DNA from: Schmidtea polychroa
Taxonomy: Eukaryota
DNA length: 64,000 nt
Assembly (NCBI GenBank): GCA_044892525.1
Contig: CM097885.1
Span: 222,146,001-222,210,000 of the forward strand
Reading direction: 5' to 3'
Part shown: one piece after another, positions 4,893 through 52,329 of the stretch
Layout: each line of letters starts with the position of its first letter
How positions within the stretch are numbered: the stretch's first letter is position 1
Notes under the pieces: generated by a model
The model's input: the letters and a program-made list of their open reading frames with translations, nothing else
What the model was told of the DNA's origin: nothing
Database searches by the model: none
Program-made: the position numbers and the translations under genes

Positions 4893-6050
4893 ATTCCATT
4901 AAAATTTTCATTTGACTTTGAAAATTATTTCATTGAAATTAACTTAAAAAATTAATCCATTAAAATTTCTATTAAAAATTGATTTTAATAAATATTCCAT
5001 TTAAATTTTCATTAAAAATTACATTTCTCAAAAAAGTTGGTGGTTATTCAATCTTTTGATAATAAATTTAAAAATCTTATTTTAATTTACTTATTACATT
5101 ACTTATTTAAAAATCATTACTGTAATTTACTTATTTAGCTTTAATTTAAAATTTGAACCACTGGTTACTTAATTTTATCCTTTATTTACCTAATTATTCT
5201 TTATTACTTAATTTTACACCTTAATTTACTTAACAATATAACCCTTATATAAATATAACCCTTATTTTCATATTTAAACAATAATTTCATGTGGTAATTG
5301 AATAATTGATGAAGATTTGCATCTAAAATTAACATTGAAAATCCCAGAAAAACCTTCATCTTAAATTGACTTTAACTTTAATATTTTAGATCATTGATTA
5401 CTTAATTTAAAAATTAAACATTAGTTTGCTTATTTAACCAATAATTTCATGTGGTCATCTGGTTGTAAGTACTTGGTATCTAGTTGTAAGTACTTGGTAT
5501 CAGGTAACTGATTGTTAGTAACTAGTTGTAGGTATCTGGTTGTAAATACATGTTCGTAAGTTACTGGTTGTTGGTACTAAGTTGTTGGTATCTTGTACTT
5601 GGTAGTTGGTATCTGATTGTTTGTTTGTTGTTGAATTATTATTATTAAAATTTGTCTTTAAAAATTATTTCATAAAAATTTTCATTAAAAAATTTCAATT
5701 CTCAAACACCTACTATTATTCCAACTATTTGTTAATAGATTTAAAAATCTTACTTTAATTTACTTATTACATTACTTTAATTTACTTATTTAAAAATTAT
5801 TACTTTAATTTACTTATTTAAAAATTAATACTTTAATTTACTTATTTAACTTTAATTAAAAATTTTTGACCATTGATTAATTAATTTTAAAATTTGGACC
5901 TTAATTAACTTTAATTTAATTTTTTAGAAGCTTAATTTAGTTATTTGAGCCCATTCATTACTTTAATTTAAAATTTTGGACCTTGATTTACTTTCATTAA
6001 AAATTTGAACCATTATTTACTTTAATTTAAAAATTTGAACCTTAATCGCG
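4880..6050. repeat. AT-rich ~30 bp degenerate tandem repeat (TTACTTTAATTTAAAATTTGGACC-like), module B
   Basis: Internally repetitive; the CTCAAACACCTACTATTATTCCAACT segment near 5700 appears reverse-complemented near 16950-16985. Confidence 0.7.
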
Positions 6051-15989: not shown

Positions 15990-16500
15990 GTACAAAAATT
16001 TTTTTATCAGACTATAGTGAGGGGGTCTCCATGGTTCTGGGATTTTCAATACCAAAAAAATTTTTTCAATACAAATTTGAATTACCACTAAAAAAAGCAT
16101 GGATTATTCAGACTATAGTGAGGGGTCTCGATGGTCCTGGGATTTTCAATACAAAATCCGACTCACTAAAAAAAGCATGATAAATTAAGGTCTTAGGATA
16201 TTTTTCAATACAAAAAGACAGTCTTCAATAAAAAAAGCGTGGTAATTTAAGGTCTTACGATATTTTCAATACAAAAAAGGTGGTCTACATTAAAAAGCAT
16301 GGTAATTTAAGGTCTCAGGATATTTTCAATACAAATATCTGTCTTCAATAAAAAAGCTTGGTAATTTAAGGTCTCAGGATATTTTCAATACAAAAAGCCG
16401 AGGATAAGTCAGTATTATTTGGGTGGGTCTCCATGGTCCTGGAATTTTCATTACAGAAAGGTAGTTTTCAATAGAAAAAGGTGGTCTACACTAAAAAAGC
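15990..16500. repeat. ~60 bp degenerate tandem repeat (AAAAAAGCATGGTAATTTAAGGTCTCAGGATATTTTCAATAC), module C
   Basis: Several adjacent copies; reverse-complement relatives at ~17460-17760 and direct relatives at ~38760-39050. Confidence 0.8.
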
Positions 16501-17110
16501 GTGGTAAATTAAGGATAAATACGTAATTGTCCGAATTTTTGAATTACAGTAAATTATGGGCTCAATTTTTTGAATTACATTAAATAATGGGTCTAAAAAT
16601 TGAATTACAGTAAATTAAGGTCCAAATTTTTGAACTACAGCAAATTATGGGTCCAATAATTGAATTAAAGTAATCAATGGATTCAAATAAATTAATTATG
16701 GTCCAAATTTTAAAATTACAGTAAATTATGGTCTAAATAAGTAAATTAAGGTTCAAATTTTGAATTAAAGATAATTAAGGTCTAAATATTTAATTTAAAG
16801 TAATCAATGGGCTCAATTAAGTAAATTATGATCTAAAATTTTAAATTAAAGTAAAATATGGTCCAAATTTTAAAATTAAGTAATCAATGGTCAAAAACTT
16901 TAAATTAAAGTTAAATAAGTAAATTAAAGTAATAATTTTTAAATTTATTAACAAAAAGTTGGAATAATAGTAGGTGTTTGAGAATTGAAATTTTTTAATA
17001 AAAAGTTTTATGAAATAATTTTTTAAGTAATTTTTAATAGAAATTTTAATAAAATATTTTTCAATGGTAATTTTATATGGAAATTTTTATGGAATAATTT
17101 TAAATAAAAA
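16500..17110. repeat. ~30 bp degenerate tandem repeat, module B in reverse orientation
   Basis: AAATTATGGGTCCAAATTTTGAATTACAG-like units running into the gap. Confidence 0.7.
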
Positions 17111-17255: not shown

Positions 17256-18570
17256 ATTTGTCTCTGAAAATTATTTCATAAAAATTTCAATCTAAAACTT
17301 TCATTTCTCAAAAATCGACTATTATTCAAACTTTTGATAATAAATTTAAAATTCTTACTTTAATTTACTTATTTAAAATTTTTACTTTCATCAAAAATAT
17401 TACTTATTTAAAATCTTAATTTTAAAATTTAGCCTTATTTTACTAAATTTAACTATCGGATTTCGTATTGAAAATATCCTGAGACCTTAAATTACCACGT
17501 CTTTTTATTGATGACCCCATTTTTGCATTTAAAATATCCTGAAATTATCAATTATTATGTCTTTTTAACGAGGATTAGATTTTGTATAGAAATTCTCAGG
17601 TTCAAGGAGACCTCCTCACTGTAGTCAGAAAAATCCATGCTTTTCATCGAGAATTGAAAATTGTATTGAAAATCCGAGGATCAATCGAGGCCCCTCACTA
17701 TAATTAGAAAAAAATGGCTTTTTTTTGTATAGCCGGATTTTGTATTGAAAATTCCAGAAAAAATAAGCATAGCACTCTGCAGGAATTACGTAACCATTGA
17801 GCAAATAAAAACTACTTCAGAAAAAAAAATTTTCTAGGGGTACCCCCACCGGATAGTCGTGCTACAATTAGCTACTAACTATCTACTGTAATATGCAAAT
17901 AAAGTGTAACTAGTGTCCACATTGCTTTAACGGTTTTAGATATAAGAAAGCATTTGACCAAGATGTTGATTTTTGTTAAAAATCAGATTGGTACTACGCT
18001 TTATACATTACTGAAAAATAAAAACTTAAAATTCATCAACTTTTCCAAAACATTTAATACACCGTTTGAGAGAACTGGGCCACTAACTACCTAATGAATT
18101 AAAATACATATTAAACCAAAATAAAAAGTTAAAAATTTATCCTATCTGCATATTTTTTGCTGAGCATTTGAAAATATTCTATAAGATATAGACTTATTTC
18201 TAATTGTTTCCGCTTGGGAACGCTGGTTATAACTTGGTCAACCCGAACAATCTACTGGCTAATAAATATGAATTTTCTGTATTTTAAAACATTCAAAAAA
18301 TATTATGCATAATATTATTGTTGGAGCTTTAAATTTGAAATTAAAATAAATATTTTAAAATAAAGTTGAAATCAAATGAAATCAAATGAAATCAAATAGA
18401 AATGTGAAAATTTGAAGGAGAAATTTAATTTTTAAATCTTTAACTTTTCTACAATTTCAAAAGTTTATCTGTATTATTAGATAATAATAAATATTTATTA
18501 AGAATAATTAAATTAATATTTATTAACAATTAGTACGTTAAATATTAAAAATATTAATTCATATGAAAAT

Positions 18571-21500
18571 AGTAGTATGTAGTAAGGACTCCAGCGCACT
18601 TTCAAGGTCATGGAATATCAAGATCAAATATAGACCAATCGAATCATTTACTTTTTAAATTAACATTTTATAAAATTACTTCTTTTTAATTTTTTTTTTA
18701 ATTTTTTCATTTTAATTTTATTAATTACGTTTAAAAATTACGTTAACCGCGCGAAAAATACAAATTTATCGTAAAAACATGTGTGTATTACACACAAAGC
18801 GACAAACTAAAATTGTAATTGAGTCATTTTGTAGAGAAATAAATACTGCCTATACATGGTTACACTTAAATCCCAATCGGACAAAGAGAAAAGAGACAAA
18901 TGGGTGAAAAAGAGAGAGAAAAAACAGTAGAGTAGGGAACAAAGACATATGACGTCATCGANNNNNNNNNNNNNNNNNNNNNNNNNNNNNNNNNNNNNNN
19001 NNNNNNNNNNNNNNNNNNNNNNNNNNNNNNNNNNNNNNNNNNNNNNNNNNNNNNNNNNNNNNNNNNNNNNNNNNNNNNNNNNNNNNNNNNNNNNNNNNNN
19101 NNNNNNNNNNNNNNAAACTATGAAAATGTTAAAAATAATCATGAAATTGAGGCAAAAATTATAAAAATGTTCCTGAAATTATTATGAAAATGTTAAATAA
19201 ATAAACTTTAGCGTCAAAATGTGTTTTAAAATATATTGAAGTTTTAAAATACTGCAACGTAATGCATTTATTTTTCCTAGCCCTTCCTTGATTTTGATTG
19301 GTCAGAATTTAATCATGTGTAATATACAAGCAGTAACTTTTCAAATGTTTGTCATTTAAACTTTTAATTTAACTTATATAAGTGAATAATTTTTTATTCT
19401 CTATCTAATATTAATGATTATTTTCTTTTAGTGAACGGATGCAGTTTATATAAATTTTGTATTGCCGAAAGTCATGAAGATGTGGAGAACTGTAAATCAG
19501 TTACATCATCATATTTCAAGATAAATAACTCTACCTTATCGGGTTACATATGTCCGGAATGTCTCATTATATCACCAGGTAGGTGGTTAATGTTTGTACG
19601 ACAGCACGGACACCATCTTAGAAGATTCGAAGAAACGAAGAGCAGGATGATCACTAAAAGTAATACTCTTTCTACTATTAACAATTATTAATTTTTTATA
19701 GTACAATCGAAAATGAATACATCATACGATCCTAAGCCGATTAAAGAATATGTTACAAGTTATGTTATTTAAGTTGTTTAATATTAATTATAAATATAGT
19801 TAGACAAAACTCTGGCACCACAAAACGAAAGTCAATATTTTACGGAAATGGAGACTCTAAAATACAATTGTGTCCACGTCGGGAGTCTGACTTAAATGGT
19901 TCTCGTGTTGAATTGACAAGCGATGTATCTGCAATTAATTCTCCTGACATTGTTGTTCCAGATTGTCTCATCAAAGAAATAGAAGATCATATTCAACGAA
20001 TGGGGACAGTAAAAATCCAATTTGGACTTTGTGCAGAGTTTATCAAAGAGGATGGTGAAATTAAAAAATGGTGTTTGTCGAATAAAGCAATTACAATGTC
20101 ATCTTCATTTATTAATGATGGAATTGAAAAATTGAAAGAAAAGTCGGAGAACTACACTCAACAAAGTAGTGGGTGGAGAATTCATAAAATATTAGAAGTA
20201 ACTATGATTTTAACTAAATTATCAGGCATAATACATGTATCTGGTAAGTTTATTTACATTATTATATATATAAATCAAGATATTTACTTAGGTTCAAGTT
20301 ACATTAAAACGCGAAATTACCTGAAAAACTGTCAGGCTTTAGTTAATGTTCAAAACAATGATCAATTCTGTTTTTTATATAGCATACTAGCCGTGTTACG
20401 TTATGATGATATACGTCGGGATAGAGAAAGAACAACAAAATATAACTTAAGTGGTAATATATATATATATATATATTTATGAATGTCATAAATCATTGAA
20501 TTTTGTTTTTAAGACTTAAAATGGAAATTTGAATGGTTTCCGATGAAGTTGGTTAACATTTGCCAATTTGAAGCAATGAATCCAAATCTAGCGATCAATG
20601 TTCTCAAATATAATAAGGATCCAATTAAACAAAAAACTAATGATATTTTCAAGAATCCGTTCGTTGACTTGGTATATAGAAGTACTTTGACGGGATCTCA
20701 GATATATCTCCAATTGATTGAAGAAGGTAATATTTCTTTTAATCATTAAAAATATTAACTAAATTTTAGAATTAAATTATCATTTTTTGGCTGTAACTAA
20801 TTTCGATCGACTGCTGAATTAAAGAGATAGAGTAGAAGGAGTCAGAATCCAATCACAATGGTGTCATACATGTCTTCATGGATTTCAAAAAGGTCCTGCT
20901 TTTGAAAGACATATAGGTCTTTGTAGGAAGAATGTGGAGCGGACGACTCTATACTCAATGCCAGAGAATAAATATATCGAATTTAAAGACTGGAGTAAAA
21001 CTATAAAACAGCAGTTTGTTGTCTACGCGGACTTTGAATCAATATTACCTCTAGATGACAAGCACTTCCAAAAACATGAGCCGATTGCATCTGAATTTGT
21101 GCTTCTTCATCAAGGTTGTCCGATTCGAAATGAAACATTTGTTGGGAAAAACTGTATCATTCAGTTTATACAAGCATTGGATGATATAGCTACAGACATA
21201 GTTTATCCGTGGTATTAAATTAATGGATCGAAGGAAATGATGGAACTCACTTGGGAACAGCAGGAAGAATTTACGAATCAAACTCATTGCTACCTTTGTA
21301 AAAAGATTATCAATATACCTGTTCGGGATCACGATCATTTTACCGGTCAATATCTCGGAGCAGCGTGTCAAGATTGTAATTTGGGTAGAAGAATCAATCC
21401 GTCTTTACCCGTTGTATTTCACAATCTTCGTGGATATGACATTCATCATATATTAAAATATGCAATTCGAAAATTCCCAGATTGGAATTTAAATGTTATT

Positions 21501-23695
21501 CCACAATCAACAGAAAAGTTTCTCACACTTACAGCGACATCGAAAGGCAGAAGAATTAGATTCATTGATTCTTTACAATTTTTAAATAGCAGCTTGGCAA
21601 ATTTATCAAAATATTTACCATGTCTTCCACTGACCTCAGATGTTTTTGAATCACAGATGATGACTTGTAAAACCATTTTTCCTTATGATATGGCTACATC
21701 AATGGATGTTTTACAGTCAATAACAGAATTACCACTGATTTGGGAGGGAGTTAGTGAAGAAGATTATATACATGCAAATCGAATCTGGCAACAATACAAC
21801 TGTGAGACACTGCTAGATTACATGCTAGTATATCTCAAGCTGGATGTTTTTCTGTTGGCCGATGTTTTTGAAGCTTTCAGAGAAAAAACATTTGACGAAG
21901 ATGGACTTGAGGCTCTATCGTTTGTTTCCATACCCGGATTAAGTTGGGCATCAGCTATTAAACAGTTACCTGAACCGGTAGAACTTATTCAAGATCCAGA
22001 GCTTTACCGTTTATTTGAAGCTGGTATTCGTGGTGGAATGACATTTATCAACAAACATCATGTTGAAGCTGATGAATCAACACAAATGTCATACCTAGAT
22101 GTTAATAATTTATATGGATGGGCGCTGTCGCAAAAACTTCCTGTTGGTGAATTTAGATGGATAAATGATCAGACTGAAATGAATGGTATTCTTGAAAGAT
22201 GTACAAATGGGGATGAGTTTGATGGAGATCGTGGATATGTTCTAGAGGTTGACATCGTCATTCCTTATAGTATACAAGATAAGCTAGTTGATTTACCTAT
22301 AGCTCCTGAGCTTTGTTATCCACCTGGTAGTAAAGTTGAAAAGCTGTTGTTAACTCATGAGCCTAAGAAAAACTATGTAGTTAATGGTAGAGTTTTGACA
22401 GAGTGGTTGAGTTACGGCGCAAAAGTCACAAAAGTTAATCGTGCTGTAGAATTCAAGCAATTAGCTATTTTCAAAGGCTATATTGATTACAATACTCAAA
22501 TGAGAGCGGCTAGTACAGATTCATTTCAGCGAGATTATTATAAGTTAAAGAACAATAGTTTATACGGTAAAACCGTGGAAAACCTTAAGAAACGTATAAA
22601 TTTGAGATTATGCAGCAAAAGCAAAAGATTGATAACTTATTGTAGTAATCCTATGTTTCGTCGTAGCATCAAGATTGCGGATGATCTCATTGCTGTTATA
22701 CTTGATAAGGAAATGGTGTGTTTAGATAGACCAATGTATATTGGACAAACCGTACTTGATTTATCTAAACTTCGCATGTACCAGTTTCAATATAAAGAAC
22801 TACAGAGTTATAGAGAAGAATTCAATTGTAAAATTAATATCGTAGCCGGTGACACAGATTCCTTCTTTTTAGAGTGTAAAAATGTTGATTTACGCTTACA
22901 ACTGTATCCAAAAATGATTGCCGATGGGCTCCTAGATACTTCAAATTATCCAGTGACTGATCCATTGTTCTCAGATAAAATTTGTTCGGTAATCGGGAAA
23001 TTCAAGGATGAGAATAAAGGAAATCAATATAAAGAATGGGTGTTTCTTCGACCCAAGTGCTACTCACTCCAAGGGGATAAAAACACTCTAAATGCCAAAG
23101 GAATAAGTCTTACAAATTCTAATATCACCCATGAAGCCTATAAAAAAGTGTATACTGATGGTGGAACAGTGAGCATCCAACAAAAGAGAATAGGAAGTGT
23201 TAATCATCAGTTGTATACTTTCATTACAGAAAAACGAGCTCTCCAATGTTTGGATGATAAAAGGTATTGGTTAAATTCTAATGAAAGCTATGCCTACGGT
23301 CACAATAAGATTCGTCAAATGCATATTGCAACTGCTATGTCTAGAAATGAATGCAAATCGAAACAAGCACTTTAACAATTAAATTTATGTGAATAATAAA
23401 ATATATATTGTGAATTATTTGACTTAGTTAATTAAAATGTGTTTTATCATTTAATTATTCATTTGTCCAATTAATTTAGATAATTAGTTTCAAGTAAGAA
23501 ATATTATTTTCGTGTTTATGTTATTTATTTTTTTTTATTTTTTCCGAAATATTAATATGCAGTTTATCTAAAATTAAATCATCGTTTTATTTTATAAATT
23601 AAATAATTTCTAATTAAAATTTTATTCAAATTGAAATATTATTGTTATAATTTACCTCTTGTTAGAATATAATGTAAATGTAAAATTAAAAAAAA

Positions 23696-23728
<33 letters not shown>

Positions 23729-24113
23729 AAATAATACTAAAATAAATACATAATAAAATAATTAATTAAGAAAATTAAAAAGAAAAAAAAATAAATAGAA
23801 GTAATTAAATAAAATTTAAATTAAAAAATAAATAAATTAATTAAAAAATAATAATAATAATAATAATTAAATAGCGTAAGTAATTAAAATAAAATATTAA
23901 TAAACTAATAAATTGATTAAATGTAATAAATTAAAATAAAACATAATAAAATAATTAATTAATAAAATTAAAATGAAAAAATAAAAAAAAAAAATTAAAA
24001 AGAAGTAATTTTATAAAATGTTAATTTAAAAAATAAATGATTCGATTGGTCTATATTTGATCTTGATATTCCATGACCTTGAAAGTGCGCTGGAGTCCTT
24101 ACTACATACTACT
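18571..24113 (+). mobile_element. Polinton/Maverick-like element, ~5.5 kb, pPolB the only visible gene
   Basis: Termini AGTAGTATGTAGTAAGGACTCC...GGAGTCCTTACTACATACTACT; TIR ~155 bp; 6 bp TSD GAAAAT at 18565-18570 and 24114-24119; empty site with a single GAAAAT in the partner arm near 37945. Confidence 0.92.
19381..23375 (+). pseudogene. Protein-primed family B DNA polymerase (pPolB), intron-containing, two in-frame TAA stops
   Basis: Exo I VYADFES, Exo II FHNLRGYD, Exo III YLKLDV, pol motifs YLDVNNLYG, KLKNNSLYGK, AGDTDS and RPKCY. Inserted endonuclease VII-like CYLC...DHDHFTG...CQDCN. Introns 19660-19701, 19759-19799, 20244-20291, 20454-20513, 20727-20769 (possibly 19382-19431). Stops at 20820-20822 and 21216-21218. 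Confidence 0.88.
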
Positions 24114-24776
24114 GAAAATATTATTCAGTAATATTTATATTAAATACATAAATGGAAATATAAATAATATTATTAATTAATAAATAAAATAACTTAATTA
24201 ATTAAATTTATTAAATCATAATAAAATAGTTAATTAATAAAATAGAATAAAATAAAGTAAGTAATAAAATTAAAAATAATAAAAAATTAAGTAAAATAAA
24301 ATAATATTTTCAAATTAAATAAATTAAAAATTAATAATAATAATAAAATTTATAATAGATTATTTAAAAAAATAAATAATAAAAGTAATAAATAATTAAT
24401 TTTAATAAAATTTAAAATAGTGTTTAAAAAGTAAATAAAATAAAATTTATAAATCAAATAAATTAGATTATTTAAAAATGTAAATCTTTAATTTTTCTAT
24501 AATTTTAAAAGTTTATCTGCATTATAAGATAATAATAAATATTTATTAAAAATAATAAAATTAATATTTATTAAAAATTATTAATGTTACAAGTTTAAAA
24601 TAGTTTCCATGTGAAAAGATTATTCAGTTATATTTTCTATTATTTCCTTATTTTATATTTATATTCTCTTCTGTTAATTGCAATTTCAAATATCTTTAAA
24701 ATATTTAAATTTCCGTAATAAAAATATTTTTAAATTGTTTGAATTATCATATTAATGTATTATATTTATTAACTAA

Positions 24777-27268
24777 ATGAATTCAAACAAACGATTAATG
24801 AACTCTGAAATTTCTGAAGCTTTCAAAAGAAATTTGAAATACGATCTAGTAAAAGATCATTCAACAGCAACTTCAAGGCATCATTATAACGCCCTCGCTC
24901 AAACGGTTTGGGAACAAATTTGTAGTCGGTGGATCAAAACTGAGGAACTTTATAACAAAAACGATCCAAAAGTAAATTCAATTTTCATTAAAATATAAAA
25001 TTAATATTATTATTTTAGCGAGTTTATTATTTATCTCTGGAATTTTACATGGGCAGAACATTGAGTAACACAATGATGAATATTGATTTACTTGAAGAAG
25101 TTAAACAAAATCTTTATGAAATGGGTCTCGAAATCGAAGAATTAGAAGAGATTGAAGATGATGCTGGACTTGGAAATGGAGGTCTTGGACGTCTAGCAGC
25201 ATGCTTTCTAGATTCCATGGCGACTTTAGGAATTGCTGCTTGCGGATATGGAATCCGTTATGACTATGGAATATTTCAACAGGTTTTCCATGATGGATGG
25301 CAAATTGAAAAGCCTGATGATTGGTTGAAGCATGGTAATGTTTGGGAAAAAATCCGATCCCAATATAGTCACGAAATCAAATTTTATGGACACTGCCAAA
25401 ATACCGAAGATGGAAATAATCGTTGGGTTGACACAGAATCTGTACTGGCAATGCCATATGATACACCGATACCTGGATATAAAAATGACATCTGTAATAC
25501 TTTACGCTTGTGGTCAAGCAAACCAGTTAATAATTTCGATTTTCAATCATTTAATTCTGGACATTACTTAAATGCAGTCCATGAAAGAAATAACGCAGAA
25601 AACATTTCACGTGTTTTGTATCCAAATGATAACTGTGAAGGTGGAAAAATACTGAGATTGAAACAAGAATATTTTGTTGTCGCAGCAAGTTTGCAAGACA
25701 TTATTCGACAATATAGAGAATCAGGACCTCGTTCAGGTTTTGATGAATTTCCTAATAAAGTTGCAATACAACTCAATGATACTCATCCTAGTATTGCTAT
25801 TCCCGAATTGATGCGTATACTAGTTGATTTGGAAGGTTTGGATTGGGATAAAGCCTGGGATATTTGTACTCGAACATTTGCCTATACAAATCACACAATT
25901 TTACCAGAAGCTCTTGAAAGATGGTCAGTTTCATTACTAGAGTTTCTTTTACCTAGACATTTACAAATTATCTATCTCATCAACCATTTCTTTATGTTAT
26001 CGGTTAAAGAAAGATATCCCCATGATAATGACCGCTTACGACGAATGTCAATAATTGAAGAGGGAGATGAAAAGAAAGTGAATATGGCCCATCTCTGTAT
26101 TGTTGGATCACACGCAGTCAATGGCGTTGCTGCGATACATTCCAAGATTATTAAAGACGATACATTCAGAGACTTTTCTGATTTTTGGCCTGAGCGGTTC
26201 CAAAACAAAACTAATGGAATAACTCCACGTCGGTGGTTATTGTTATGCAATCCAGATCTTTCCAATTACATCAGTCAGAATATTGGAAGATCATGGATAA
26301 ACAACTTGAATGATTTGTCAGATTTGAAACGGTTCTGCGATGATGCAAATGTGCTTGAGTCAATCATGCAAATCAAATATGAAAACAAAGTAAAATTTGC
26401 AAATTACATTGAGAAAAACATGAACATCAAAATTAATCCCAATACAATGTTCGACTTTCAAGTGAAACGGATCCATGAATATAAACGTCAATTGTTAAAT
26501 TGTTTATATGTGATTGTGCTATACAACCGATTGAAAAAGAATCCTCATTTGGAAATCACTCCAAGAACTGTCATGTTTGGAGGAAAAGCTGCTCCTGGGT
26601 ATCACATGGCCAAATTGATAATCAAACTTATCAATCAAGTCGCATCTACCATTAATCAAGATCCAATCATCAGTGAAAAGCTAAAACTTGTATTTCTTGA
26701 AAACTATCGAGTATCAATGGCAGAGAAGATCTTTCCTGCTGCAGATCTTAGTCAACAAATATCCACAGCAGGTACGGAGGCATCTGGAACTGGGAACATG
26801 AAATTTATGTTAAATGGAGCTTTGACAATTGGTACAATGGATGGAGCTAATGTCGAAATGTGTGAAGAGATGGGTAAAGAAAATATGTTTATATTTGGAA
26901 TGTTAGTAGACGAAGTCAACTCACTCAAACCAAGATATAATTCCATGGAATTTATTGGGAGAAACGAAGAACTCAATTTATGTTTAAACCAAATTCGTGA
27001 TGGCCATTTTTCACCTAATCAACCACATTTATTTCACGATATCTACAATTCTTTAGTTTACCATGATAGATTTATGTTGTGCGCTGACTTTGAAGATTAT
27101 GTCAAAGTACAGGATGAAGTTGGAAAGATGTATCAAAATAAAAGACAATGGGCTAAAATGGCTTTATTAAACATTGCATCCAGTGGAAAGTTTTCATCTG
27201 ATAGAACAATTTCTGAATATGCACGAGACATTTGGAATAGTAAACAGAACTCGCATGAAAGTTTATAG
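24777..27268 (+). CDS. PYG: Glycogen phosphorylase, copy 1 (two exons, intron 24972-25018, ~814 aa)
   Basis: Splicing joins DPK|[15 protein letters not shown]; [41 protein letters not shown] and the PLP-lysine motif [10 protein letters not shown] are all present. Confidence 0.97.
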
Positions 27269-28524
27269 TAAAATCAATTTATCTGCTTTATGTTAATTAA
27301 ATATATTTATTATTATTATTAATTTTATTGTTTCTTCAATTTTTATTTGTTTTAATAAACATTTTTATTTTAAACAATTTATAAATATTCGTGATTTTCA
27401 ATTGCTAATTATAGATTTGTTTAATTTTATAAGTAAATAATAATTTGGCTACTAACTAACTACCTATCTGATAAACTAAGTAAAATATCAATGAATAAAA
27501 TATTGATGCAATATTGATGAGATACTTATATAAAAATCTCAAAAAAAAACTAAAATAAGTTTTCCTCCAACTTATTGACATGGCGACATTGATATTTCAT
27601 ATATAGGTAGAGTAGGCAACATATAGCTCTGCCTAGGGCCGCCAAATGACTGGAACTATCATTCAACGTATTAATAAATATTCATAATAAATATTTTAAT
27701 ATATCAACTTTATTGATTATTTTGTCAATAAATTTTAAAATGAAGTGTAATATAAAAATAGTTTTGAAGTTTCTAAAATTGATAAATTCTGTGTTAACAG
27801 AGAAGAATATTTTTATATATTTTAATATTTAATTTTATATACAATTTTTAAAGTTTTAATTTTTCAAAATGTTTTTTATTTAAAATGAATTTTATAATTT
27901 TGTCTTTCAATATTATATAATTATCAGTCTTCTTTATTTACCCTAACCTTAATTTTTTTCATATTTTACTTTTCGAGTTACTTTGCCCGTGTTCTTTTTT
28001 ATATATTATATGATTAAATAAATTTCAAATATTTTTAGATATATTAGTAATAAAAGTTTATAAATTTTAAATACACCAAAAGAAATTAGTTTAGAATAAA
28101 GTGAATTTCCAACTTTAACTCTTCTATGAAAACCAGTGGGAATTTATTCGTTGATTTTTGATATAATTACATTAAAGTCATCTTTCATTTCAAAAATTAA
28201 ATTATTTTATCCAAATATAAATAAAATTAATAGTTTAAGAAATATTTTAAACCATGAAATTTTCCATTTGAATAATAATAATCATTGATAATAAATATTT
28301 AAAAATATTTTATTTAATTAATTTGAAATGATGAATTTTACTTAAATATTGTAAATTAGTAATTTTTAAAGGTTAATATTCAATTTTTTAATATATACTT
28401 ATAATAATGACAATTAAATTTCTTAGGCATATTGATAACAGAGTGGTAATATGATGTATACTGCTAATATTAACATTTATGATAATAATATTAATAATAA
28501 AGATGATAATAACTTGATATTAAT

Positions 28525-28579
<55 letters not shown>

Positions 28580-28727
28580 TTGATGACAATGATAATAACA
28601 ATAATTGCATATCAATAATTGTAATGTGCTAATATTTTAGAAATAATAATAATAATCATAAGGCAGACGGGTGCCCAATAATAGAGAATCAATATTAGAT
28701 TTGATCGTGATAATGTTATTTAAAATA

Positions 28728-33306: not shown

Positions 33307-33455
33307 TTATTTTAAATAACATTATCACGATCAAATTTAATATTGATTCTCTATTATTGGGCACCCGCCTGCCTTATGATTATTATTATTATTTCTAAAA
33401 TATTAGCACATTACAATTATTGATATGCAATTATTGTTATTATCATTGTCATCAA

Positions 33456-33537
<82 letters not shown>

Positions 33538-36500
33538 ATTAATATCAAGTTATTATCATCTTTATTATTAATATTATTATCATAAATGTTAATATTAGCA
33601 GTATACATCATATTACCACTCTGTTATCAATATGCCTAAGAAATTTAATTGTCATTATTATAAGTATATATTAAAAAATTGAATATTAACCTTTAAAAAT
33701 TACTAATTTACAATATTTAAGTAAAATTCATCATTTCAAATTAATTAAATAAAATATTTTTAAATATTTATTATCAATGATTATTATTATTCAAATGGAA
33801 AATTTCATGGTTTAAAATATTTCTTAAACTATTAATTTTATTTATATTTGGATAAAATAATTTAATTTTTGAAATGAAAGATGATTTTAATGTAATTATA
33901 TCAAAAATCAACGAATAAATTCCCACTGGTTTTCATAGAAGAGTTAAAGTTGGAAATTCACTTTATTCTAAACTAATTTCTTTTGGTGTATTTAAAATTT
34001 ATAAACTTTTATTACTAATATATCTAAAAATATTTGAAATTTATTTAATCATATAATATATAAAAAAGAACACGGGCAAAGTAACTCGAAAAGTAAAATA
34101 TGAAAAAAATTAAGGTTAGGGTAAATAAAGAAGACTGATAATTATATAATATTGAAAGACAAAATTATAAAATTCATTTTAAATAAAAAACATTTTGAAA
34201 AATTAAAACTTTAAAAATTGTATATAAAATTAAATATTAAAATATATAAAAATATTCTTCTCTGTTAACACAGAATTTATCAATTTTAGAAACTTCAAAA
34301 CTATTTTTATATTACACTTCATTTTAAAATTTATTGACAAAATAATCAATAAAGTTGATATATTAAAATATTTATTATGAATATTTATTAATACGTTGAA
34401 TGATAGTTCCAGTCATTTGGCGGCCCTAGGCAGAGCTATATGTTGCCTACTCTACCTATATATGAAATATCAATGTCGCCATGTCAATAAGTTGGAGGAA
34501 AACTTATTTTAGTTTTTTTTTGAGATTTTTATATAAGTATCTCATCAATATTGCATCAATATTTTATTCATTGATATTTTACTTAGTTTATCAGATAGGT
34601 AGTTAGTTAGTAGCCAAATTATTATTTACTTATAAAATTAAACAAATCTATAATTAGCAATTGAAAATCACGAATATTTATAAATTGTTTAAAATAAAAA
34701 TGTTTATTAAAACAAATAAAACTTGAAGAAACAATAAAATTAATAATAATAATAAATATATTTAATTAACATAAAACAGATTAATTGATTTTACTATAAA
34801 CTTTCATGCGAGTTCTGTTTACTATTCCAAATGTCTCGTGCATATTCAGAAATTGTTCTATCAGATGAAAACTTTCCACTGGATGCAATGTTTAATAAAG
34901 CCATTTTAGCCCATTGTCTTTTATTTTGATACATCTTTCCAACTTCATCCTGTACTTTGACATAATCTTCAAAGTCAGCGCACAACATAAATCTATCATG
35001 GTAAACTAAAGAATTGTAGATATCGTGAAATAAATGTGGTTGATTAGGTGAAAAATGGCCATCACGAATTTGGTTTAAACATAAATTGAGTTCTTCGTTT
35101 CTCCCAATAAATTCCATGGAATTATATCTTGGTTTGAGTGAGTTGACTTCGTCTACTAACATTCCAAATATAAACATATTTTCTTTACCCATCTCTTCAC
35201 ACATTTCGACATTAGCTCCATCCATTGTACCAATTGTCAAAGCTCCATTTAACATAAATTTCATGTTCCCAGTTCCAGATGCCTCCGTACCTGCTGTGGA
35301 TATTTGTTGACTAAGATCTGCAGCAGGAAAGATCTTCTCTGCCATTGATACTCGATAGTTTTCAAGAAATACAAGTTTTAGCTTTTCACTGATGATTGGA
35401 TCTTGATTAATGGTAGATGCGACTTGATTGATAAGTTTGATTATCAATTTGGCCATGTGATACCCAGGAGCAGCTTTTCCTCCAAACATGACAGTTCTTG
35501 GAGTGATTTCCAAATGAGGATTCTTTTTCAATCGGTTGTATAGCACAATCACATATAAACAATTTAACAATTGACGTTTATATTCATGGATCCGTTTCAC
35601 TTGAAAGTCGAACATTGTATTGGGATTAATTTTGATGTTCATGTTTTTCTCAATGTAATTTGCAAATTTTACTTTGTTTTCATATTTGATTTGCATGATT
35701 GACTCAAGCACATTTGCATCATCGCAGAACCGTTTCAAATCTGACAAATCATTCAAGTTGTTTATCCATGATCTTCCAATATTCTGACTGATGTAATTGG
35801 AAAGATCTGGATTGCATAACAATAACCACCGACGTGGAGTTATTCCATTAGTTTTGTTTTGGAACCGCTCAGGCCAAAAATCAGAAAAGTCTCTGAATGT
35901 ATCGTCTTTAATAATCTTGGAATGTATCGCAGCAACGCCATTGACTGCGTGTGATCCAACAATACAGAGATGGGCCATATTCACTTTCTTTTCATCTCCC
36001 TCTTCAATTATTGACATTCGTCGTAAGCGGTCATTATCATGGGGATATCTTTCTTTAACCGATAACATAAAGAAATGGTTGATAAGGTAGATAATTTGTA
36101 AATGTCTAGGTAAAAGAAACTCTAGTAATGAAACTGACCATCTTTCAAGAGCTTCTGGTAAAATTGTGTGATTTGTATAGGCAAATGTTCGAGTACAAAT
36201 ATCCCAGGCTTTATCCCAATCCAAACCTTCCAAATCAACTAGTATACGCATCAATTCGGGAATAGCAATACTAGGATGAGTATCATTGAGTTGTATTGCA
36301 ACTTTATTAGGAAATTCATCAAAACCTGAACGAGGTCCTGATTCTCTATATTGTCGAATAATGTCTTGCAAACTTGCTGCGACAACAAAATATTCTTGTT
36401 TCAATCTCAGTATTTTTCCACCTTCACAGTTATCATTTGGATACAAAACACGTGAAATGTTTTCTGCGTTATTTCTTTCATGGACTGCATTTAAGTAATG

Positions 36501-39256
36501 TCCAGAATTAAATGATTGAAAATCGAAATTATTAACTGGTTTGCTTGACCACAAGCGTAAAGTATTACAGATGTCATTTTTATATCCAGGTATCGGTGTA
36601 TCATATGGCATTGCCAGTACAGATTCTGTGTCAACCCAACGATTATTTCCATCTTCGGTATTTTGGCAGTGTCCATAAAATTTGATTTCGTGACTATATT
36701 GGGATCGGATTTTTTCCCAAACATTACCATGCTTCAACCAATCATCAGGCTTTTCAATTTGCCATCCATCATGGAAAACCTGTTGAAATATTCCATAGTC
36801 ATAACGGATTCCATATCCGCAAGCAGCAATTCCTAAAGTCGCCATGGAATCTAGAAAGCATGCTGCTAGACGTCCAAGACCTCCATTTCCAAGTCCAGCA
36901 TCATCTTCAATCTCTTCTAATTCTTCGATTTCGAGACCCATTTCATAAAGATTTTGTTTAACTTCTTCAAGTAAATCAATATTCATCATTGTGTTACTCA
37001 ATGTTCTGCCCATGTAAAATTCCAGAGATAAATAATAAACTCGCTAAAATAATAATATTAATTTTATATTTTAATGAAAATTGAATTTACTTTTGGATCG
37101 TTTTTGTTATAAAGTTCCTCAGTTTTGATCCACCGACTACAAATTTGTTCCCAAACCGTTTGAGCGAGGGCGTTATAATGATGTCTTGAAGTTTCTGTTG
37201 AATGATCTTTTACTAGATCGTATTTCAAATTTCTTTTGAAAGCTTCGGAAATTTCAGAGTTCATTAATCGTTTGTTTGAATTCATTTAGTTAATAAATAT
37301 AATACATTAATATGATAATTCAAACAATTTAAAAATATTTTTATTACGGAAATTTAAATATTTTAAAGATATTTGAAATTGCAATTAACAGAAGAGAATA
37401 TAAATATAAAATAAGGAAATAATAGAAAATATAACTGAATAATCTTTTCACATGGAAACTATTTTAAACTTGTAACATTAATAATTTTTAATAAATATTA
37501 ATTTTATTATTTTTAATAAATATTTATTATTATCTTATAATGCAGATAAACTTTTAAAATTGTAGAAAAATTAAAGATTTACATTTTTAAATAATCTAAT
37601 TTATTTGATTTATAAATTTTATTTTATTTACTTTTTAAACACTATTTTAAATTTTATTAAAATTAATTATTTATTACTTTTATTATTTATTTTTTTAAAT
37701 AATCTATTATAAATTTTATTATTATTATTAATTTTTAATTTATTTAATTTGAAAATTTTATTTTATTTTACTTAATTTTTTATTATTTTTAATTTTATTA
37801 CTTACTTTATTTTATTCTATTTTATTAATTAACTATTTTATTATGATTTGATAAATTTAATTAATTAAGTTATTTTATTTATTAATTAATAATATTATTT
37901 ATATTTCCATTTATGTATTTAATATAAATATTACTGAATAATATTTTCATATGAATTAATATTTTTAATATTTAACGTACTAATTGTTAATAAATATTAA
38001 TTTAATTATTCTTAATAAATATTTATTATTATCTAATAATACAGATAAACTTTTGAAATTGTAGAAAAGTTAAAGATTTAAAAATTAAATTTCTCCTTCA
38101 AATTTTCACATTTCTATTTGATTTCATTTGATTTCATTTGATTTCAACTTTATTTTAAAATATTTATTTTAATTTCAAATTTAAAGCTCCAACAATAATA
38201 TTATGCATAATATTTTTTGAATGTTTTAAAATACAGAAAATTCATATTTATTAGCCAGTAGATTGTTCGGGTTGACCAAGTTATAACCAGCGTTCCCAAG
38301 CGGAAACAATTAGAAATAAGTCTATATCTTATAGAATATTTTCAAATGCTCGGCAAAAAATATGCAGATAGGATAAATTTTTAACTTTTTATTTTGGTTT
38401 AATATGTATTTTAATTCATTAGGTAGTTAGTGGCCCAGTTCTCTCAAACGGTGTATTAAATGTTTTGGAAAAGTTGATGAATTTTAAGTTTTTATTTTTC
38501 AGTAATGTATAAAGCGTAGTACCAATCTGATTTTTAACAAAAATCAACATCTTGGTCAAATGCTTTCTTATATCTAAAACCGTTAAAGCAATGTGGACAC
38601 TAGTTACACTTTATTTGCATATTACAGTAGATAGTTAGTAGCTAATTGTAGCACGACTATCCGGTGGGGGTACCCCTAGAAAATTTTTTTTTCTGAAGTA
38701 GTTTTTATTTGCTCAATGGTTACGTAATTGCTGCAGAGTGCTATGCTTATTTTTTCTGGAATTTTCAATACAAAATCCGGCTATACAAAAAAAAGCCATT
38801 TTTTTCTAATTATAGTGAGGGCCTCGATCGATCCTCGGATTTTCAATACAATTTTCAATTCTCGATAAAAAGCATGGATTTTTCTGACTACAGTGAGGAG
38901 GTCTCCTTGAACCTGAGAATTTCTATACAAAATCTAATCCTCGTTAAAAAGACATAATAATTGATAATTTCAGGATATTTTAAATGCAAAAATGGGGTCA
39001 TCAATAAAAAGACGTGGTAATTTAAGGTCTCAGGATATTTTCAATACGAAATCCGATAGTTAAATTTAGTAAAATAAGGCTAAATTTTAAAATTAAGATT
39101 TTAAATAAGTAATATTTTTGATGAAAGTAAAAATTTTAAATAAGTAAATTAAAGTAAGAATTTTAAATTTATTATCAAAAGTTTGAATAATAGTCGATTT
39201 TTGAGAAATGAAAGTTTTAGATTGAAATTTTTATGAAATAATTTTCAGAGACAAAT
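33307..39256 (-). repeat. Right arm of large inverted duplication
   Basis: Reverse complement of 17256-18570 plus 24114-28728, with scattered substitutions and a longer (AAT)n tract. Confidence 0.92.
34794..37285 (-). CDS. PYG: Glycogen phosphorylase, copy 2 (two exons)
   Basis: The 739 aa ORF has the same translation as copy 1; exon 1 differs at one residue (HSTATS versus HSTETS). Confidence 0.97.
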
Positions 39257-46949: not shown

Positions 46950-48023
46950 ATGAGCTCTAATATTAGCGGAAATCACAACAAAACTGACTATGATTTCTAT
47001 AAAATTTATTATTTAAATTTGGAAAAGTATTATCTGAACTGGTATTTACCTATAACGATTTTCGTTGGAATAATTGGTGGAATAGTTTGTGCAACATTTT
47101 TGATTATCTCGAAAATCTTCCCGAAAAACGTTTTGATTTGGATGCTGAGTATTTGTATTGGGGATTTGATGATTCTATTATTTGACGCTTTGAGGATGCT
47201 ACTGAAAATCTGGGTTGGATTCGATATCCGGGATTTCAATAACACGATTTGCAAAATGCACAACTTTTTCTCAAATTATTTCATTTACTGGTCGGGATAC
47301 ATGCAAACTTGCATGTCAATTCAGAGATTAATTTCGATTCTAAATCCACTGAAAGCCAGAGGTGTGTTTACAAATAAATTAGTATTATCCGTTTGGGTCA
47401 GTGTGTCGGTTTTGTTGACCGGTCCTATGATACCATATTTACTTTACTGGCAACTTTCTGAAGAGAAGCAAGGAAAAGATTGTTCGCCTGTAAATAAAAA
47501 TTTATACGCTCTAATAACAGTTCTTGACATAACAATATGGGGTATTATTCCTCTGTTGACCATGATAACATCGACAATCGGCATCAGCTTTGTAGTGTTT
47601 AAGTCTACAAGCGAAGTCGGCACCTTTTCTAGCCAATCACAGTCAATTAAATTGGTCAATAACACATCTCGACGACATGCGCAAGTCAACAATGAGAGAG
47701 CTTGGCAAGTAACTCGGCTGTTGATTTGTATGAACATCTTATATTTTATCAGTAATTTCCCGTTGCTTATTTATCAAATTTACCTCAATGCCGGAGGCAA
47801 TAAAGTTGACAAGTCCATGCCTCAACAGCTCCACAAAACGATTTATTACACTTTAAGAAGCATTTGTTATTTGAGCAGCTCCTGGAATTGGGTGTTTTAT
47901 TGCGTCGGCGGCCATCAATTCCGAGTTCGGGCTTTACAGATAATCCAACGTTTTAACTGTTTTCGTAAACCGGTTCTACCAAATGAAACGCAAACGAAAA
48001 CAATCAACCTAACTTCATATTGA
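46950..48023 (+). CDS. Intronless class A (rhodopsin-like) GPCR, probably peptide receptor (FMRFamide-receptor-like group)
   Basis: Seven hydrophobic segments, N-terminal NxS/T sites, TM2 Asp (IGDL), TM3 Cys and an ECL2 Cys, SIQRLISI at the DRY position, NWVFY at the NPxxY position; ATG at 46950. Confidence 0.88.
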   Translation: MSSNISGNHNKTDYDFYKIYYLNLEKYYLNWYLPITIFVGIIGGIVCATFLIISKIFPKNVLIWMLSICIGDLMILLFDALRMLLKIWVGFDIRDFNNTICKMHNFFSNYFIYWSGYMQTCMSIQRLISILNPLKARGVFTNKLVLSVWVSVSVLLTGPMIPYLLYWQLSEEKQGKDCSPVNKNLYALITVLDITIWGIIPLLTMITSTIGISFVVFKSTSEVGTFSSQSQSIKLVNNTSRRHAQVNNERAWQVTRLLICMNILYFISNFPLLIYQIYLNAGGNKVDKSMPQQLHKTIYYTLRSICYLSSSWNWVFYCVGGHQFRVRALQIIQRFNCFRKPVLPNETQTKTINLTSY

Positions 48024-48989: not shown

Positions 48990-50400
48990 AAAATATTTTT
49001 AAAATTTAACAAAATTTATAATTAAAACTCTTAGAATCTTTCATCTTCCTCATACCGGGAATTCTTAATATAACCACATCTAGTTTCAAAAACACCATCA
49101 TATAATTCAATGTGGTACATTACGTTTCTTTCTATATATTGTTTGCTTTTTGGTATTCATTTTCTCTAACTCCATCTGAAATTGGTGATAATTCATAGGT
49201 GGTCTGCAAAACTTCCAAAGATGTCACGAAATTATATGAAGAATATGTCTTTTGAATCAGTCTAGAGTTTCATTGAATATCGATCTTGTCAAGGATAAAT
49301 TGTTCAATGTCTTGACAGCTTTAGCCAATGAGTCATTTACAAACTGGTATGAATCAATAGACCGTATTCTAAGTCCATCAACATATCTCATAAATTACAA
49401 GAACTTTTCACAACTAATTTGGATACAAGGTAAATTCTAATTAAGAAATTTATTTAATCCATGTTTGAGGATATGATGCAGTCATAACCACGCGAATTAT
49501 GAAAAACTATAGGAAATAATTTTATGATTTGTTTTATGATATTACATCTTTTACATACATGAGCAATATACTATCCCATAAAATGATCGTGATCTAACCT
49601 TATCTATTATCTTTTCTTGCATAAATATCAAATGAGTATTCTTCATCCAATGTATGTGGCAATATTGGTTTTTCCCCACTTCTTTATAGTACGGACACAC
49701 AATTTTTGTGGCTATATATGCCACTTTTGTCAAAAATTCATAAAGTTAGTTTTGACCAAAGAATTGATGATGACTTAATACTCCAGTAAAATTAGTGATT
49801 AAGAGTAATCCAGCCGATATTGGTACATGTATTTGATGATATTTTTCATCCAGAGGTAAAGTGGATTCGAAATATGCATAAATTACAAATGGGTGTGTTA
49901 TTATTTTTAACCAATCTCTAAATTCCAAATTTTTATTCTTGGGCAAAATATATAATGTTGTATCCAATTAATTTAACTCTTGATGTTTTTCAAATGCTTT
50001 TTGTTTGCAAAATCCGTTTAAGCAATTTTTACACGACAGGCAACAAATTCGAACATTACACTCTTTAATAGAATGGCAATTCATCAATTTTGGCAAGTAA
50101 TTTAATACAGTTTGATGATATTTTTCACCCACTTCTATCAGTAATAAATAAATTTAATTCAATTACTATTGTCCTATGAATTATATCTAAATGTGAGCGT
50201 TTCATTACAATATCATTTATATTCAATATGTCGTTATTATTATAAATCAACATCGGATTTCTATAATCAAATTTCAGGATGTCACAAAGTTTCGTTGGCA
50301 TATCATCAGAATCATATACTAATTCTATCATGTATGGCAAACACTTTGTGGGTCTTTTTCTATTATAACAAAATTGTAACAAAGTATTAAAAGTTTTGCA
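48990..50400 (-). pseudogene. Decayed pPolB gene from another Polinton lineage
   Basis: MPTKLCDILKFDYRNP, CKNCLNGF...FEKH, EFRDWLKIITHPFVIYAYFES, RIRSIDSYQFVNDSLA and YMMVFLKLDV are collinear with the 19.4-23.4 kb gene; many stops and frameshifts. Confidence 0.82.
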
Positions 50401-52329
50401 ATAAAAAAATAAATAATTTCAGTGAATGTAAACAAATTAATAAAAATATTGCAATAAATTACAAATCGTGAAATCTTTCATTAAATCACAATATTAAGTT
50501 GCAATAAAGTAATATATTATTACATTGAATTGCAACAAATAACAAAATATTACAGTAATTTGTAACAAAGTTGTGAAATATTTCATCAAATTACAAAAAA
50601 ATAATAACATTTTAGAAAGTTTCGACAAAGTTATGGATTATTCATCAAATTGTAAAAAGATAACAAAAATATTGCACCAAAGTAATGAAATATTTAAGCA
50701 AATTACATCAAAATAATAAATGATTTCACCAAATTGCAACAAAGTTATAAATTATTACAACCATTTTTAATTGCAGATTAAACCAATTTATATAGAATTA
50801 AATTTCATCTTTACATTGTTACAGTGAAAACTCAATAAACTTATTTCAACTAGTTGTAAAATGAAAAATATACAAAGCATGTGTTTAGCATACACATCAT
50901 TTTAAATGTATGATCAAGTCATATTATAAAGAATTAATATCTTATCCGTACTTTATTACAGTGAAAAATCAATAAAAATATTAATTATATTTTTAAAATT
51001 TTATATATTAATTATTTTAAATTAAATTTGCCACCGTGATGGATATGGGCGTTTTCCAGAATATTCTATTTTGTTTTAGATATTTTAATATATAATTCTC
51101 ATTTTCTTGTAATTCTTATGTTATTTCTTTTTGCTTTTTATTAAATGTTTATTTTTTAATTAACTTTGCTAAATTACTTAGCGACCAGGATAGATTTTGT
51201 CATTTTCCGGGATATTCTAGTTTTTTGTTTATTCTTATTCTTATCTCTAATTCATTTTTGATGTCATTTTGTGGAAATCGTTCTAATTTCCATTCCTACC
51301 TTTCCTTATCGCCATTAATTCAAATTTGCTTACTTATGTATCTATGTTGTGTTTGAGTTCATTTTATGTGATACTTCTTGCTTTTGTTATATATTAGTTT
51401 TACTTTTGGGTTTATTTTTTTTGTGTCGAGTGAATTCTATTTGCTTGTTTAGTTGATGTTTGGACGTGTTTGAATTTGACTCGACTTTATGTTATGTTTG
51501 CGTGTTAGGTTCCGACCCATTTCGTCACGTTGCTTACATCCCGGTAAGTCACACCCACCGCCTATGGAGCAAAGTCACTCAACTTCGTCCAAGCACCTCT
51601 TATCTCCATTATTTCCTATGTTATCTCGATCATTTTAGATCATACTTTAATCATCAGGAAGGTAGGTGATCTACACGGCTCACATCTCCCTAAGGCTTGA
51701 AAATTCGCGAAAAAGGCTATGCCGAAAATTCATAAATATCAAAAAAAACATCGATATCTTTACTGATTCATAGTCAAACACCATATTGAATTCTCCCCTG
51801 AAATTCATTACGATTTTCGGGTACAGGTAATAAATTAGATATATGTATAAATATATGTAAAGGAAAACATATTTTAAAATTTTTTGTTTCACGTTATATT
51901 CATGTACCTTGAGAATGTATGCATGTTTTCCAGTGTAGAAAAAGAAATCTGATATGTACATATTTTTATAAAAATTTTAAAATATTTTTTACTTTCAATT
52001 TAAAACGATGAAGGCGAAGAAACTGACAGTGATAATCCACTTTTAATCTTATAATTAAAAAAATTGTTATATTTTGTAATATATTATATCAATATATAAT
52101 ATATAATATTGTTCTATGCAATTTTAATAAATTAAATATATATTTTATTTTCATTGTACTCATGCTTGTCCATTTTTGTTTCAAAAAGGATAAAACAACC
52201 CCAGCGTCAATGAGATCAGCACCGGCTCTATGGTTCTATGCGCCCTATGCAATTTTTTTGCGCCCTTTTTGCTTGAATTAAAAAAAATTGTACATGTGGG
52301 AGATAAGTGAATAAATTTAAAGGACAAAA

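Follow-up and report, generated by a model that had tools for sequence, protein, structure and literature searches.

Six probable spliceosomal introns, all in phase 1, in the polymerase gene of a high-copy Polinton derivative of Schmidtea polychroa

We analysed a 64,000-nucleotide stretch of the Schmidtea polychroa genome (GenBank assembly GCA_044892525.1, contig CM097885.1, positions 222,146,001 to 222,210,000 of the forward strand), hereafter called the window, with positions counted from its first letter. It contains a Polinton-derived element whose protein-primed DNA polymerase gene (pPolB) is interrupted by six short GT-AG segments. Comparison with homologues and with other copies of the gene suggests that these segments are very likely genuine spliceosomal introns, with the reservation that splicing was not seen in RNA. 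The explanation that we favour, and hold to be likely, is that the gene belongs to a high-copy Polinton derivative in which no integrase of its own was seen, that three of the introns are apparently old and shared with distant relatives, and that the copy in the window is broken.

Evidence that the segments are introns

The six segments, comprised between positions 19382 and 20769, all begin with GT and end with AG, are 41 to 60 nt long and have a GC content of 12-17%, as compared to 30-37% in the exons. All are in phase 1, the internal exons are all symmetrical and multiples of three nucleotides, and the exons add up to 3711 nt. Coordinates, splice-site dinucleotides and phases are those that had been put forward in a sequence-only reading of the window. 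That reading also had the exon total right, but its single open frame of 1237 codons does not hold, because two premature in-frame TAA codons in the last exon of this copy, at 20820 and 21216, had been missed. A variant genetic code in which TAA specifies a residue was considered for this copy and dropped, because other copies carry an open last exon of 870 codons. Exons 2 to 6 are free of stops solely in the proposed frame, the other frames having 1-15 stops each, and the C-terminal part of the gene product matches the Pfam family PF03175 (E 1.6e-30), in agreement with the Polinton-type polymerase identity proposed earlier. The sizes are host-like, as had been claimed: lengths of 41, 85, 47, about 44 and 47 nt were found for five introns of host genes in the window, yet four of these are in phase 0 and one in phase 1. 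A loose branch-point-like motif, uninformative in AT-rich DNA, is found near the acceptor in four of the six introns.

When the last exon of a natural copy was used as query, 3741 relatives were found among 8000 scored sequences, 120 of which were listed. The best full-length relatives among these 120 are single open reading frames (ORFs), 55-62% identical. With 43 homologues as queries, the N-terminal match stopped at positions 20683-20746 and the catalytic match resumed in another frame, that is, around intron 6. In the alignment of a natural read-through sequence, residues encoded by the codons of introns 4 and 5 were present in none of 30 single-ORF homologues, as compared to mostly 28-30 of the 30 for the flanking exon codons. 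Three junction motifs, which the sequence-only reading had described as restored across the splices, do align with intronless homologues once the inserts are left out. Introns 1 to 3 sit in poorly conserved regions, and their support comes from the copy comparison; homology support is weakest for intron 1 and the split start codon that its removal would create.

For the copy comparison, 34 other elements were used, one arm each, picked from the top-scoring hits that span the gene, a choice that biases lesion counts. The six GT-AG segments were present in 35 of 35 spanning copies, and the GT and AG dinucleotides were intact in 406 of 408 cases across the 34 other copies. Length changes that are not multiples of three were observed in 3, 2, 0, 9, 20 and 15 of the 34 copies for introns 1 to 6, respectively. 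Insertions and deletions amounted to 11.8 per kb per copy in the introns, with respect to 0.10 in exons 2-6 and 0.18 in exon 7. The ratio of non-synonymous to synonymous substitution rates (dN/dS), calculated on variants shared by at least three copies, was 0.09 for exons 2-6 (19 synonymous and 7 non-synonymous variants) and 0.12 for exon 7, while singleton variants gave 0.66 and 0.56, respectively. In this sample, biased to top-scoring hits, 16 of the 35 copies contained no lesion.

Predicted protein domains and probable intron positions in divergent relatives

In the structural model of the intronless homologue P0001 (predicted local distance difference test, pLDDT, 88), the N-terminus is disordered and leads into a confidently modelled, compact alpha/beta domain (residues 77-190), then a short low-confidence linker, and past it a second domain with Cys and His motifs, followed by the exonuclease and the polymerase. 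Its best fold match is phi29 polymerase (E 4e-18); the profile of the terminal protein (TP) and OTU region gave no sequence match in the PDB. On this model, intron sites 4, 5 and 6 map at about residues 199, 253 and 324. The Cys motif encoded in exon 5 and the His motif that opens exon 7 have aligned counterparts in homologues. By comparison with the portion of PMC11071308 available, the second domain is predicted to be a vOTU protease and the alpha/beta domain the TP. Accordingly placed on the model, exon 4 would encode the entire predicted TP domain, with intron 4 in the low-confidence linker between the two N-terminal domains, introns 2 and 3 in the disordered linker, and introns 5 and 6 within the predicted vOTU.

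With this layout, the phase 1 introns might be a working exon-cassette system, in which skipping of exon 4 would give an in-frame polymerase devoid of its primer and retention of intron 5 or 6 a short protein that contains the primer. We regard this as unlikely. The symmetrical internal exons speak in its favour, as does the position of intron 4 at an interdomain linker, which recurs in divergent relatives; however, introns 5 and 6 cut within the predicted vOTU and introns 2 and 3 fall in the disordered region. The accessible text of PMC11304566 offers a precedent, namely the separate splice forms of adenovirus pTP and polymerase, and that of PMC11071308 describes the TP-vOTU architecture together with independent splits of the TP; yet no such isoform was observed here in the contigs of sequencing runs tentatively taken as RNA. 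With the Cys and His of the vOTU conserved, protease cleavage could already release the TP. Moreover, relatives and sister families lack various of the six introns. Equally unlikely is the broader proposal of a whole animal Polinton clade in which conserved phase 1 introns box the TP into an exon of its own, from which the spliceosome would make primer-only and primer-less products. If it were true, this clade would be a present-day intermediate on the way to the separation of pTP and polymerase in adenoviruses, based on self-copying polymerase-only palindromes that borrow their integrase from other Polintons.

Intron-like features at sites 4, 5 and 6 were found in proteins that are 40-62% identical to the window exons. 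P0004 (59% identical) has a 15-residue, AT-codon-rich in-frame insert exactly at site 6, the only such insert among the 120 proteins listed. P0125, from the TP-OTU profile search, has a similar 15-residue AT-codon-rich in-frame insert exactly at site 4, plus a tail at site 6. Seven proteins end at site 4 with a Gly, a donor-like residue and a hydrophobic tail (P0296, P0312, P0332, P0342, P0289, P0301 and P0353); donor-like tails are present at site 6 in five proteins (P0125, P0267, P0297, P0302 and P0290) and at site 5 in one (P0269), and acceptor-like heads in P0290, P0292 and P0317. P0352, P0288, P0292 (at site 6) and P0131 were excluded as ambiguous; P0007, P0010 and P0017 start after site 6 but, being ambiguous as well, were not counted as intron-bearing, and the fragment P0128, whose contig equals that of P0010 in length, is contiguous at site 4. 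Alignment ends fell within about 6 residues of the three junctions in 19 of 73 cases, as compared to 13% expected (p 0.003), some of the 19 not being intron-like. A search with exon 4 alone for longer proteins gave nothing among 187 candidates.

The presence of these features is mosaic: P0267 shows site 6 only, P0269 site 5 and not site 4, P0125 sites 4 and 6, and no relative among those examined has all of introns 4-6. When the intron 4 label was placed on a tree of the short TP region, 6 changes were needed, at least 2 of them forced. On these protein comparisons, positions 4, 5 and 6 are probably shared with distant relatives, in a patchy manner. Old introns that were lost several times, or introns gained more than once at preferred sites, would account equally well for this pattern. 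P0129 and P0266 both stop at one place of the exonuclease domain, where Gly-Lys is followed by a hydrophobic tail; this is probably a further phase 1 intron, outside the 5' third. Because of these two proteins, the clustering of introns at the 5' side of the gene is not absolute.

The sequence-only reading had proposed a lineage-specific gain of the introns by the element, which might thereby have adapted to surveillance or export linked to splicing in the host. We consider this improbable, and the adaptive part is unsupported. Trees of the catalytic part do group the six-intron family with P0001, P0002, P0007 and P0010 (88/93), among single-ORF relatives and apart from the other families of the host genome, which favours a lineage-specific gain, as does the absence of a relative with all of introns 4-6; the trees neither recovered nor excluded P0004 and the six-intron family as one clade (approximately unbiased test, p-AU 0.128). 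The 5' clustering of the six introns, with a post hoc probability of 7e-4 under uniform placement, points in the same direction, and the 5' introns of a second lineage in the host genome may reflect convergence under host pressure. However, sites 4, 5 and 6 recur in the divergent proteins described above, so that the circumstance under which that reading would have abandoned its claim, the same introns being widespread in the clade, was found in part, that is, patchily at these three sites. Furthermore, other families have phase 1 leader introns of their own: families A, B, D and F of the host genome show a phase 1 acceptor just ahead of a conserved LYP..C motif, and three phase 1 introns, as read from DNA, interrupt the leader in the palindromic sister of family B. 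Against adaptation, the other polymerase families of the host genome with one long open frame over sites 2-6 are numerous.

All nine introns seen as DNA, six here and three in the sister palindromic family, are in phase 1. Codon composition gives phase 1 a probability of 0.46-0.48 at G-ended sites. It follows from the genetic code that phase 1 is the sole phase in which neither GTAA nor TAG makes an in-frame stop in an intron that is a multiple of three; intron 4 is such an intron, and free of stops, in 25 of 35 copies, and so are the inserts of P0004 and P0125. The phase bias may have two sources: G is the most frequent base at codon position 1 in this gene, and a young phase 1 intron of suitable length could be read through, with no stop from GTAA or TAG. 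An origin as introners or by intron duplication was rejected, because the six introns are not alike: in pairwise comparisons the lowest p was 0.03 among 15 pairs, uncorrected, and no pair is significantly alike after allowing for 15 tests.

The element, its copies and the favoured explanation

The element in the window (Table 1) contains no integrase, capsid, packaging ATPase or maturation protease gene, and no further ORF of at least 100 residues is present in 18571-24113 besides frames overlapping the gene and one running through a stretch of N. Its insertion is recent, because a local inverted duplication still has the site unoccupied in its other arm.

In the host genome, 12,446 candidates for the family were found, and the 105 that were scored are 96-100% identical. 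The exact 23-nt family end occurs 128 times in forward and 124 times in reverse orientation. All of the 10 opposite-strand pairs fetched are mirror elements of 9.5-15 kb, with two head-to-head polymerase arms that are 96-99.97% identical within an element, the median identity between elements being 97.4%. The 16 elements fetched from end to end all have 6-bp target-site duplications (TSDs), with terminal inverted repeats (TIRs) that range from 0.3 kb up to the whole element, and 12 of them contain polymerase sequence; four loci (L100, L103, L105 and L107) have the family ends and 6-bp TSDs, measure 4.8-5.7 kb and are without polymerase sequence. Private variants were found in both arms of all 6 two-armed elements tested (2-32 each), both-arm variants outnumbering one-arm variants in 4 of the 6. 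This is as expected if one arm were copied from the other at or after replication.

An integrase or capsid belonging to the family was found neither in the 16 end-to-end copies nor in 51 further loci (14 flanking ORFs of those scanned in Pfam). The sole integrase among the 16 copies belongs to an element of another family that is nested there and has ends and a TSD of its own. A 20-kb copy with integrase and capsid was considered as the autonomous parent and rejected, its cargo being this nested insertion. The nested element (L093-L095, C1:259.30-259.32 Mb) is a mirror image of 13,057 bp that interrupts exon 4 of a six-intron copy, is bounded by AGTAGT ends of its own and a target duplication, and encodes in both arms an integrase (PLA2-like domain), a double-jelly-roll capsid and an A32 ATPase, but not a polymerase. 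In the host genome, about 1,450 occurrences of its end motif were counted on each strand. Complete Polintons with rve integrase and A32 ATPase are present elsewhere in the genome, one of which (L045:3578-5161) carries ORFs matching TBP (E 2e-14) and Bcl-2 (E 1.3e-7). A second, distantly related polymerase lineage (L037-L042) forms polymerase-only palindromes of 12.6-16 kb; it has central repeats and promoter-side sequence in common with the six-intron family, and three phase 1 mini-exons in its leader. The loop between palindrome arms starts, and in two cases also ends, with an internal AGTAGT-type terminus (L017-L018 centre; L037:8131 to L038; L043:8195 to L044), which looks as if a small second element formed the palindrome centre.

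The favoured explanation would connect the structure, TSDs, copy variation and selection on the spliced frame described above as follows. Host RNA polymerase II would transcribe an integrated copy, and the host spliceosome would take out the six introns. The spliced product would be a protein of 1236 residues, with a zinc-binding region, the TP, the OTU protease, the exonuclease and the polymerase in an order predicted from homologues. This polymerase would copy the element from its AGTAGT ends by protein priming, and fold-back during strand displacement may generate mirror arms of variable length. Integration, leaving the 6-bp duplications, would depend on an integrase borrowed from the full-length Polintons of the host genome. 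The introns would have built up, been lost or been reshuffled over a long nuclear residence of the polymerase clade. In this view they were tolerated passengers, fixed through the read-through of young introns, instead of an adaptation of recent date.

Several observations weigh against this explanation. No spliced transcript was seen in the contigs of three runs that were taken as RNA by guess. For these and one DNA-like run, which dominates the list of joints, 15 of the 70 joints were listed, all of them away from the six junctions. Contigs X1 record 1 and X4 record 16 cross intron 3 unspliced, the latter intron 2 as well. We treat these contigs as weak counter-evidence and give them little weight, because the many genomic copies allow DNA carry-over or host pre-mRNA to yield them. 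X4 record 17 ends exactly at the end of exon 6 and was not counted, as its continuation beyond this point is not visible. The evidence for shared sites is at protein level only, pattern scans of metagenome and viral contigs having given 14 and 1 stretches, respectively, none of them confirmed; homologues spanning the sites, a set biased towards intronless proteins, are mostly contiguous (308 of 309 at site 4, 316 of 317 at site 5 and 258 of 264 at site 6). As for the phase bias, composition alone is insufficient, because nine of nine would then have a probability of about 0.001 (post hoc), and introns 1, 2, 3 and 6 shift the frame or hold a stop in at least 34 of 35 copies, so they are unreadable today.

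That the segments are not spliced at all, whether as inserts that are translated or as AT-rich junk of dead copies mobilised in trans, is very improbable. The unspliced contigs, the stops of the window copy and the frequent in-frame, stop-free state of intron 4 speak for it, but the segments occur in every copy examined, so that without splicing all copies would be dead. Yet purifying selection in the spliced frame acts on the shared variants of the exons to either side, GT and AG are near-invariant, and out-of-frame intron length variants are inherited among copies. A coding insertion, a possibility that the sequence-only reading had raised with the 48-bp segment as its example, fails because the length of intron 4 is not a multiple of three in 9 of 34 copies.

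Table 1. Features of the element, its polymerase gene and related sites in the window
Feature	Positions	Strand	Basis
One-armed polymerase-only Polinton-derived element, 5543 bp, AGTAGT...ACTACT ends	18571..24113	+	Sequence ends
TSD, 6 bp, left copy	18565..18570	+	Sequence
TSD, 6 bp, right copy	24114..24119	+	Sequence
Empty insertion site, single 6-mer, opposite arm of the inverted duplication	37943..37948	-	Arms 99.1-99.6% identical, element absent
Left TIR, about 158 bp, 98% to right TIR	18571..18727	+	Sequence
Right TIR	23956..24113	-	Sequence
Remnant of inter-arm repeat region of palindromic members (144-bp tandem unit there)	18734..18961	.	Family comparison
Exon 1, sole coding base (first base of putative split start codon)	19381..19381	+	P0002, P0011 and P0015 begin with Met at or beside the site
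Intron 1, 50 nt, phase 1	19382..19431	+	GT and AG in 34/34 copies
Exon 2, N-terminal Cys/His-rich, likely zinc-binding region	19432..19659	+	Matches N-termini of P0002, P0011, P0020 and others
Intron 2, 42 nt, phase 1	19660..19701	+	Retention gives internal stop in 34/35 copies
Exon 3, linker	19702..19758	+	No length variants across 34 copies
Intron 3, 41 nt, phase 1	19759..19799	+	Retention gives frameshift in 35/35 copies
Exon 4, whole predicted TP domain	19800..20243	+	Homologue alignment and homologue model
Intron 4, 48 nt, phase 1, in predicted TP-vOTU linker	20244..20291	+	Site apparently common to divergent relatives
Exon 5, first part of predicted vOTU with catalytic Cys	20292..20453	+	Homologue alignment
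Intron 5, 60 nt (15-146 nt in other copies), phase 1	20454..20513	+	Site apparently shared with P0269, P0317
Exon 6, middle of predicted vOTU domain	20514..20726	+	Homologue alignment
Intron 6, 43 nt, phase 1	20727..20769	+	P0004, P0125 and others apparently have the same site
Exon 7, vOTU His followed by exonuclease and polymerase domains; premature stops at 20820 and 21216	20770..23375	+	PF03175, E 1.6e-30
Decayed relic of a pPolB from another lineage, uninterrupted where introns 5 and 6 would lie	49066..50403	-	Sequence comparison

The relic at 49-50 kb behaves as the sequence-only reading had described it. The inverted duplication mentioned above occupies 17256-39256 (arms 17256-18574 and 24113-28727 versus 33308-39256, 99.1-99.6% identical) and contains a glycogen phosphorylase gene twice, each copy having one intron. 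Seven near-identical phosphorylase copies lie within C1 222.17-222.85 Mb, mostly as inverted pairs, and a 75%-identical paralogue is found on C2; as the copies are local, the idea that the duplication is itself a dispersed element was rejected. The window also contains a piggyBac-type transposase ORF (PF13843, 12411-13787, minus strand) with inverted repeats around it (5643-6029 and 16686-17039), a region (16004-17110) that resembles repeats near a family B Polinton in L036, and a single-exon ORF for a seven-transmembrane receptor (PF00001, Srw-like, 46926-48023, plus strand).

Significance and comparison with known systems

Polinton genes are usually said to lack introns. If the clade has a spliced polymerase, its members would be scored as broken, because screens for intact elements rely on long ORFs; prokaryote-style gene calls would likewise cut spliced polymerases into fragments, as among the database relatives. 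The shared intron positions may serve as a marker of long nuclear residence, and allow the gain, loss and phase bias of introns to be studied in one compact gene of viral origin. An element devoid of integrase and capsid whose polymerase is nevertheless under purifying selection, and whose mirror arms share private mutations, could give a handle on Polinton replication, which to our knowledge has not been demonstrated directly.

Ends of the AGT type are a motif of the Polinton family. The window element has such ends, and shares with Polintons/Mavericks (Eupolintoviridae, adintovirus-like) the pPolB gene, the TIRs and the 6-bp target duplication. Unlike Polintons, it is 5.5 kb long and lacks integrase, ATPase, protease and capsid genes, many members of its family being two-arm palindromes of 10-15 kb. 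It is therefore Polinton-like in its ends and polymerase, but it is not an autonomous Polinton/Maverick.

Intact vertebrate Mavericks are reported, in the portion of the study accessible (PMC8097293, Barreat and Katzourakis 2021), to have intronless ORFs, whereas the window polymerase has six probable introns. The predicted alpha/beta N-terminal domain, OTU-like Cys and His, exonuclease and palm motifs resemble the TP-vOTU-EXO-PALM arrangement of Polinton pPolB (Krupovic et al. 2024, PMC11071308). The words 'intron' and 'splic' do not occur in the available text of that paper, whereas here the predicted TP is one exon and the OTU extends over three. Spliceosomal introns in a Polinton polymerase are likewise not reported in the accessible parts of PMC12220804, PMC10748475, PMC8502044, PMC11296320, PMC6431247, PMC3151243 and bioRxiv 2024.03.25.586562; the literature searched, in which Repbase and most subscription papers were out of reach, held no such report, the introner study below aside.

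According to the available part of PMC12166617, introners sit in integrated dinoflagellate polinton-like elements, partly in coding regions. The likeness with our case consists in intron-forming sequences within integrated elements of this kind. The difference is that introners are transposon-derived and repetitive, whereas the six introns are not significantly alike and their positions are apparently conserved across divergent elements.

Adenoviruses, a related virus lineage, also use the host spliceosome for replication genes: in the text of PMC11304566 that could be accessed, the E2B mRNAs for pTP and Ad-pol share 5' exons, and the start codon of IVa2 is split by an intron, as may be the case for the window gene. 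However, adenovirus joins long leaders to separate pTP and polymerase ORFs, whereas here short, host-sized introns would be removed from one fused ORF, within conserved domains, and no alternative form was seen.

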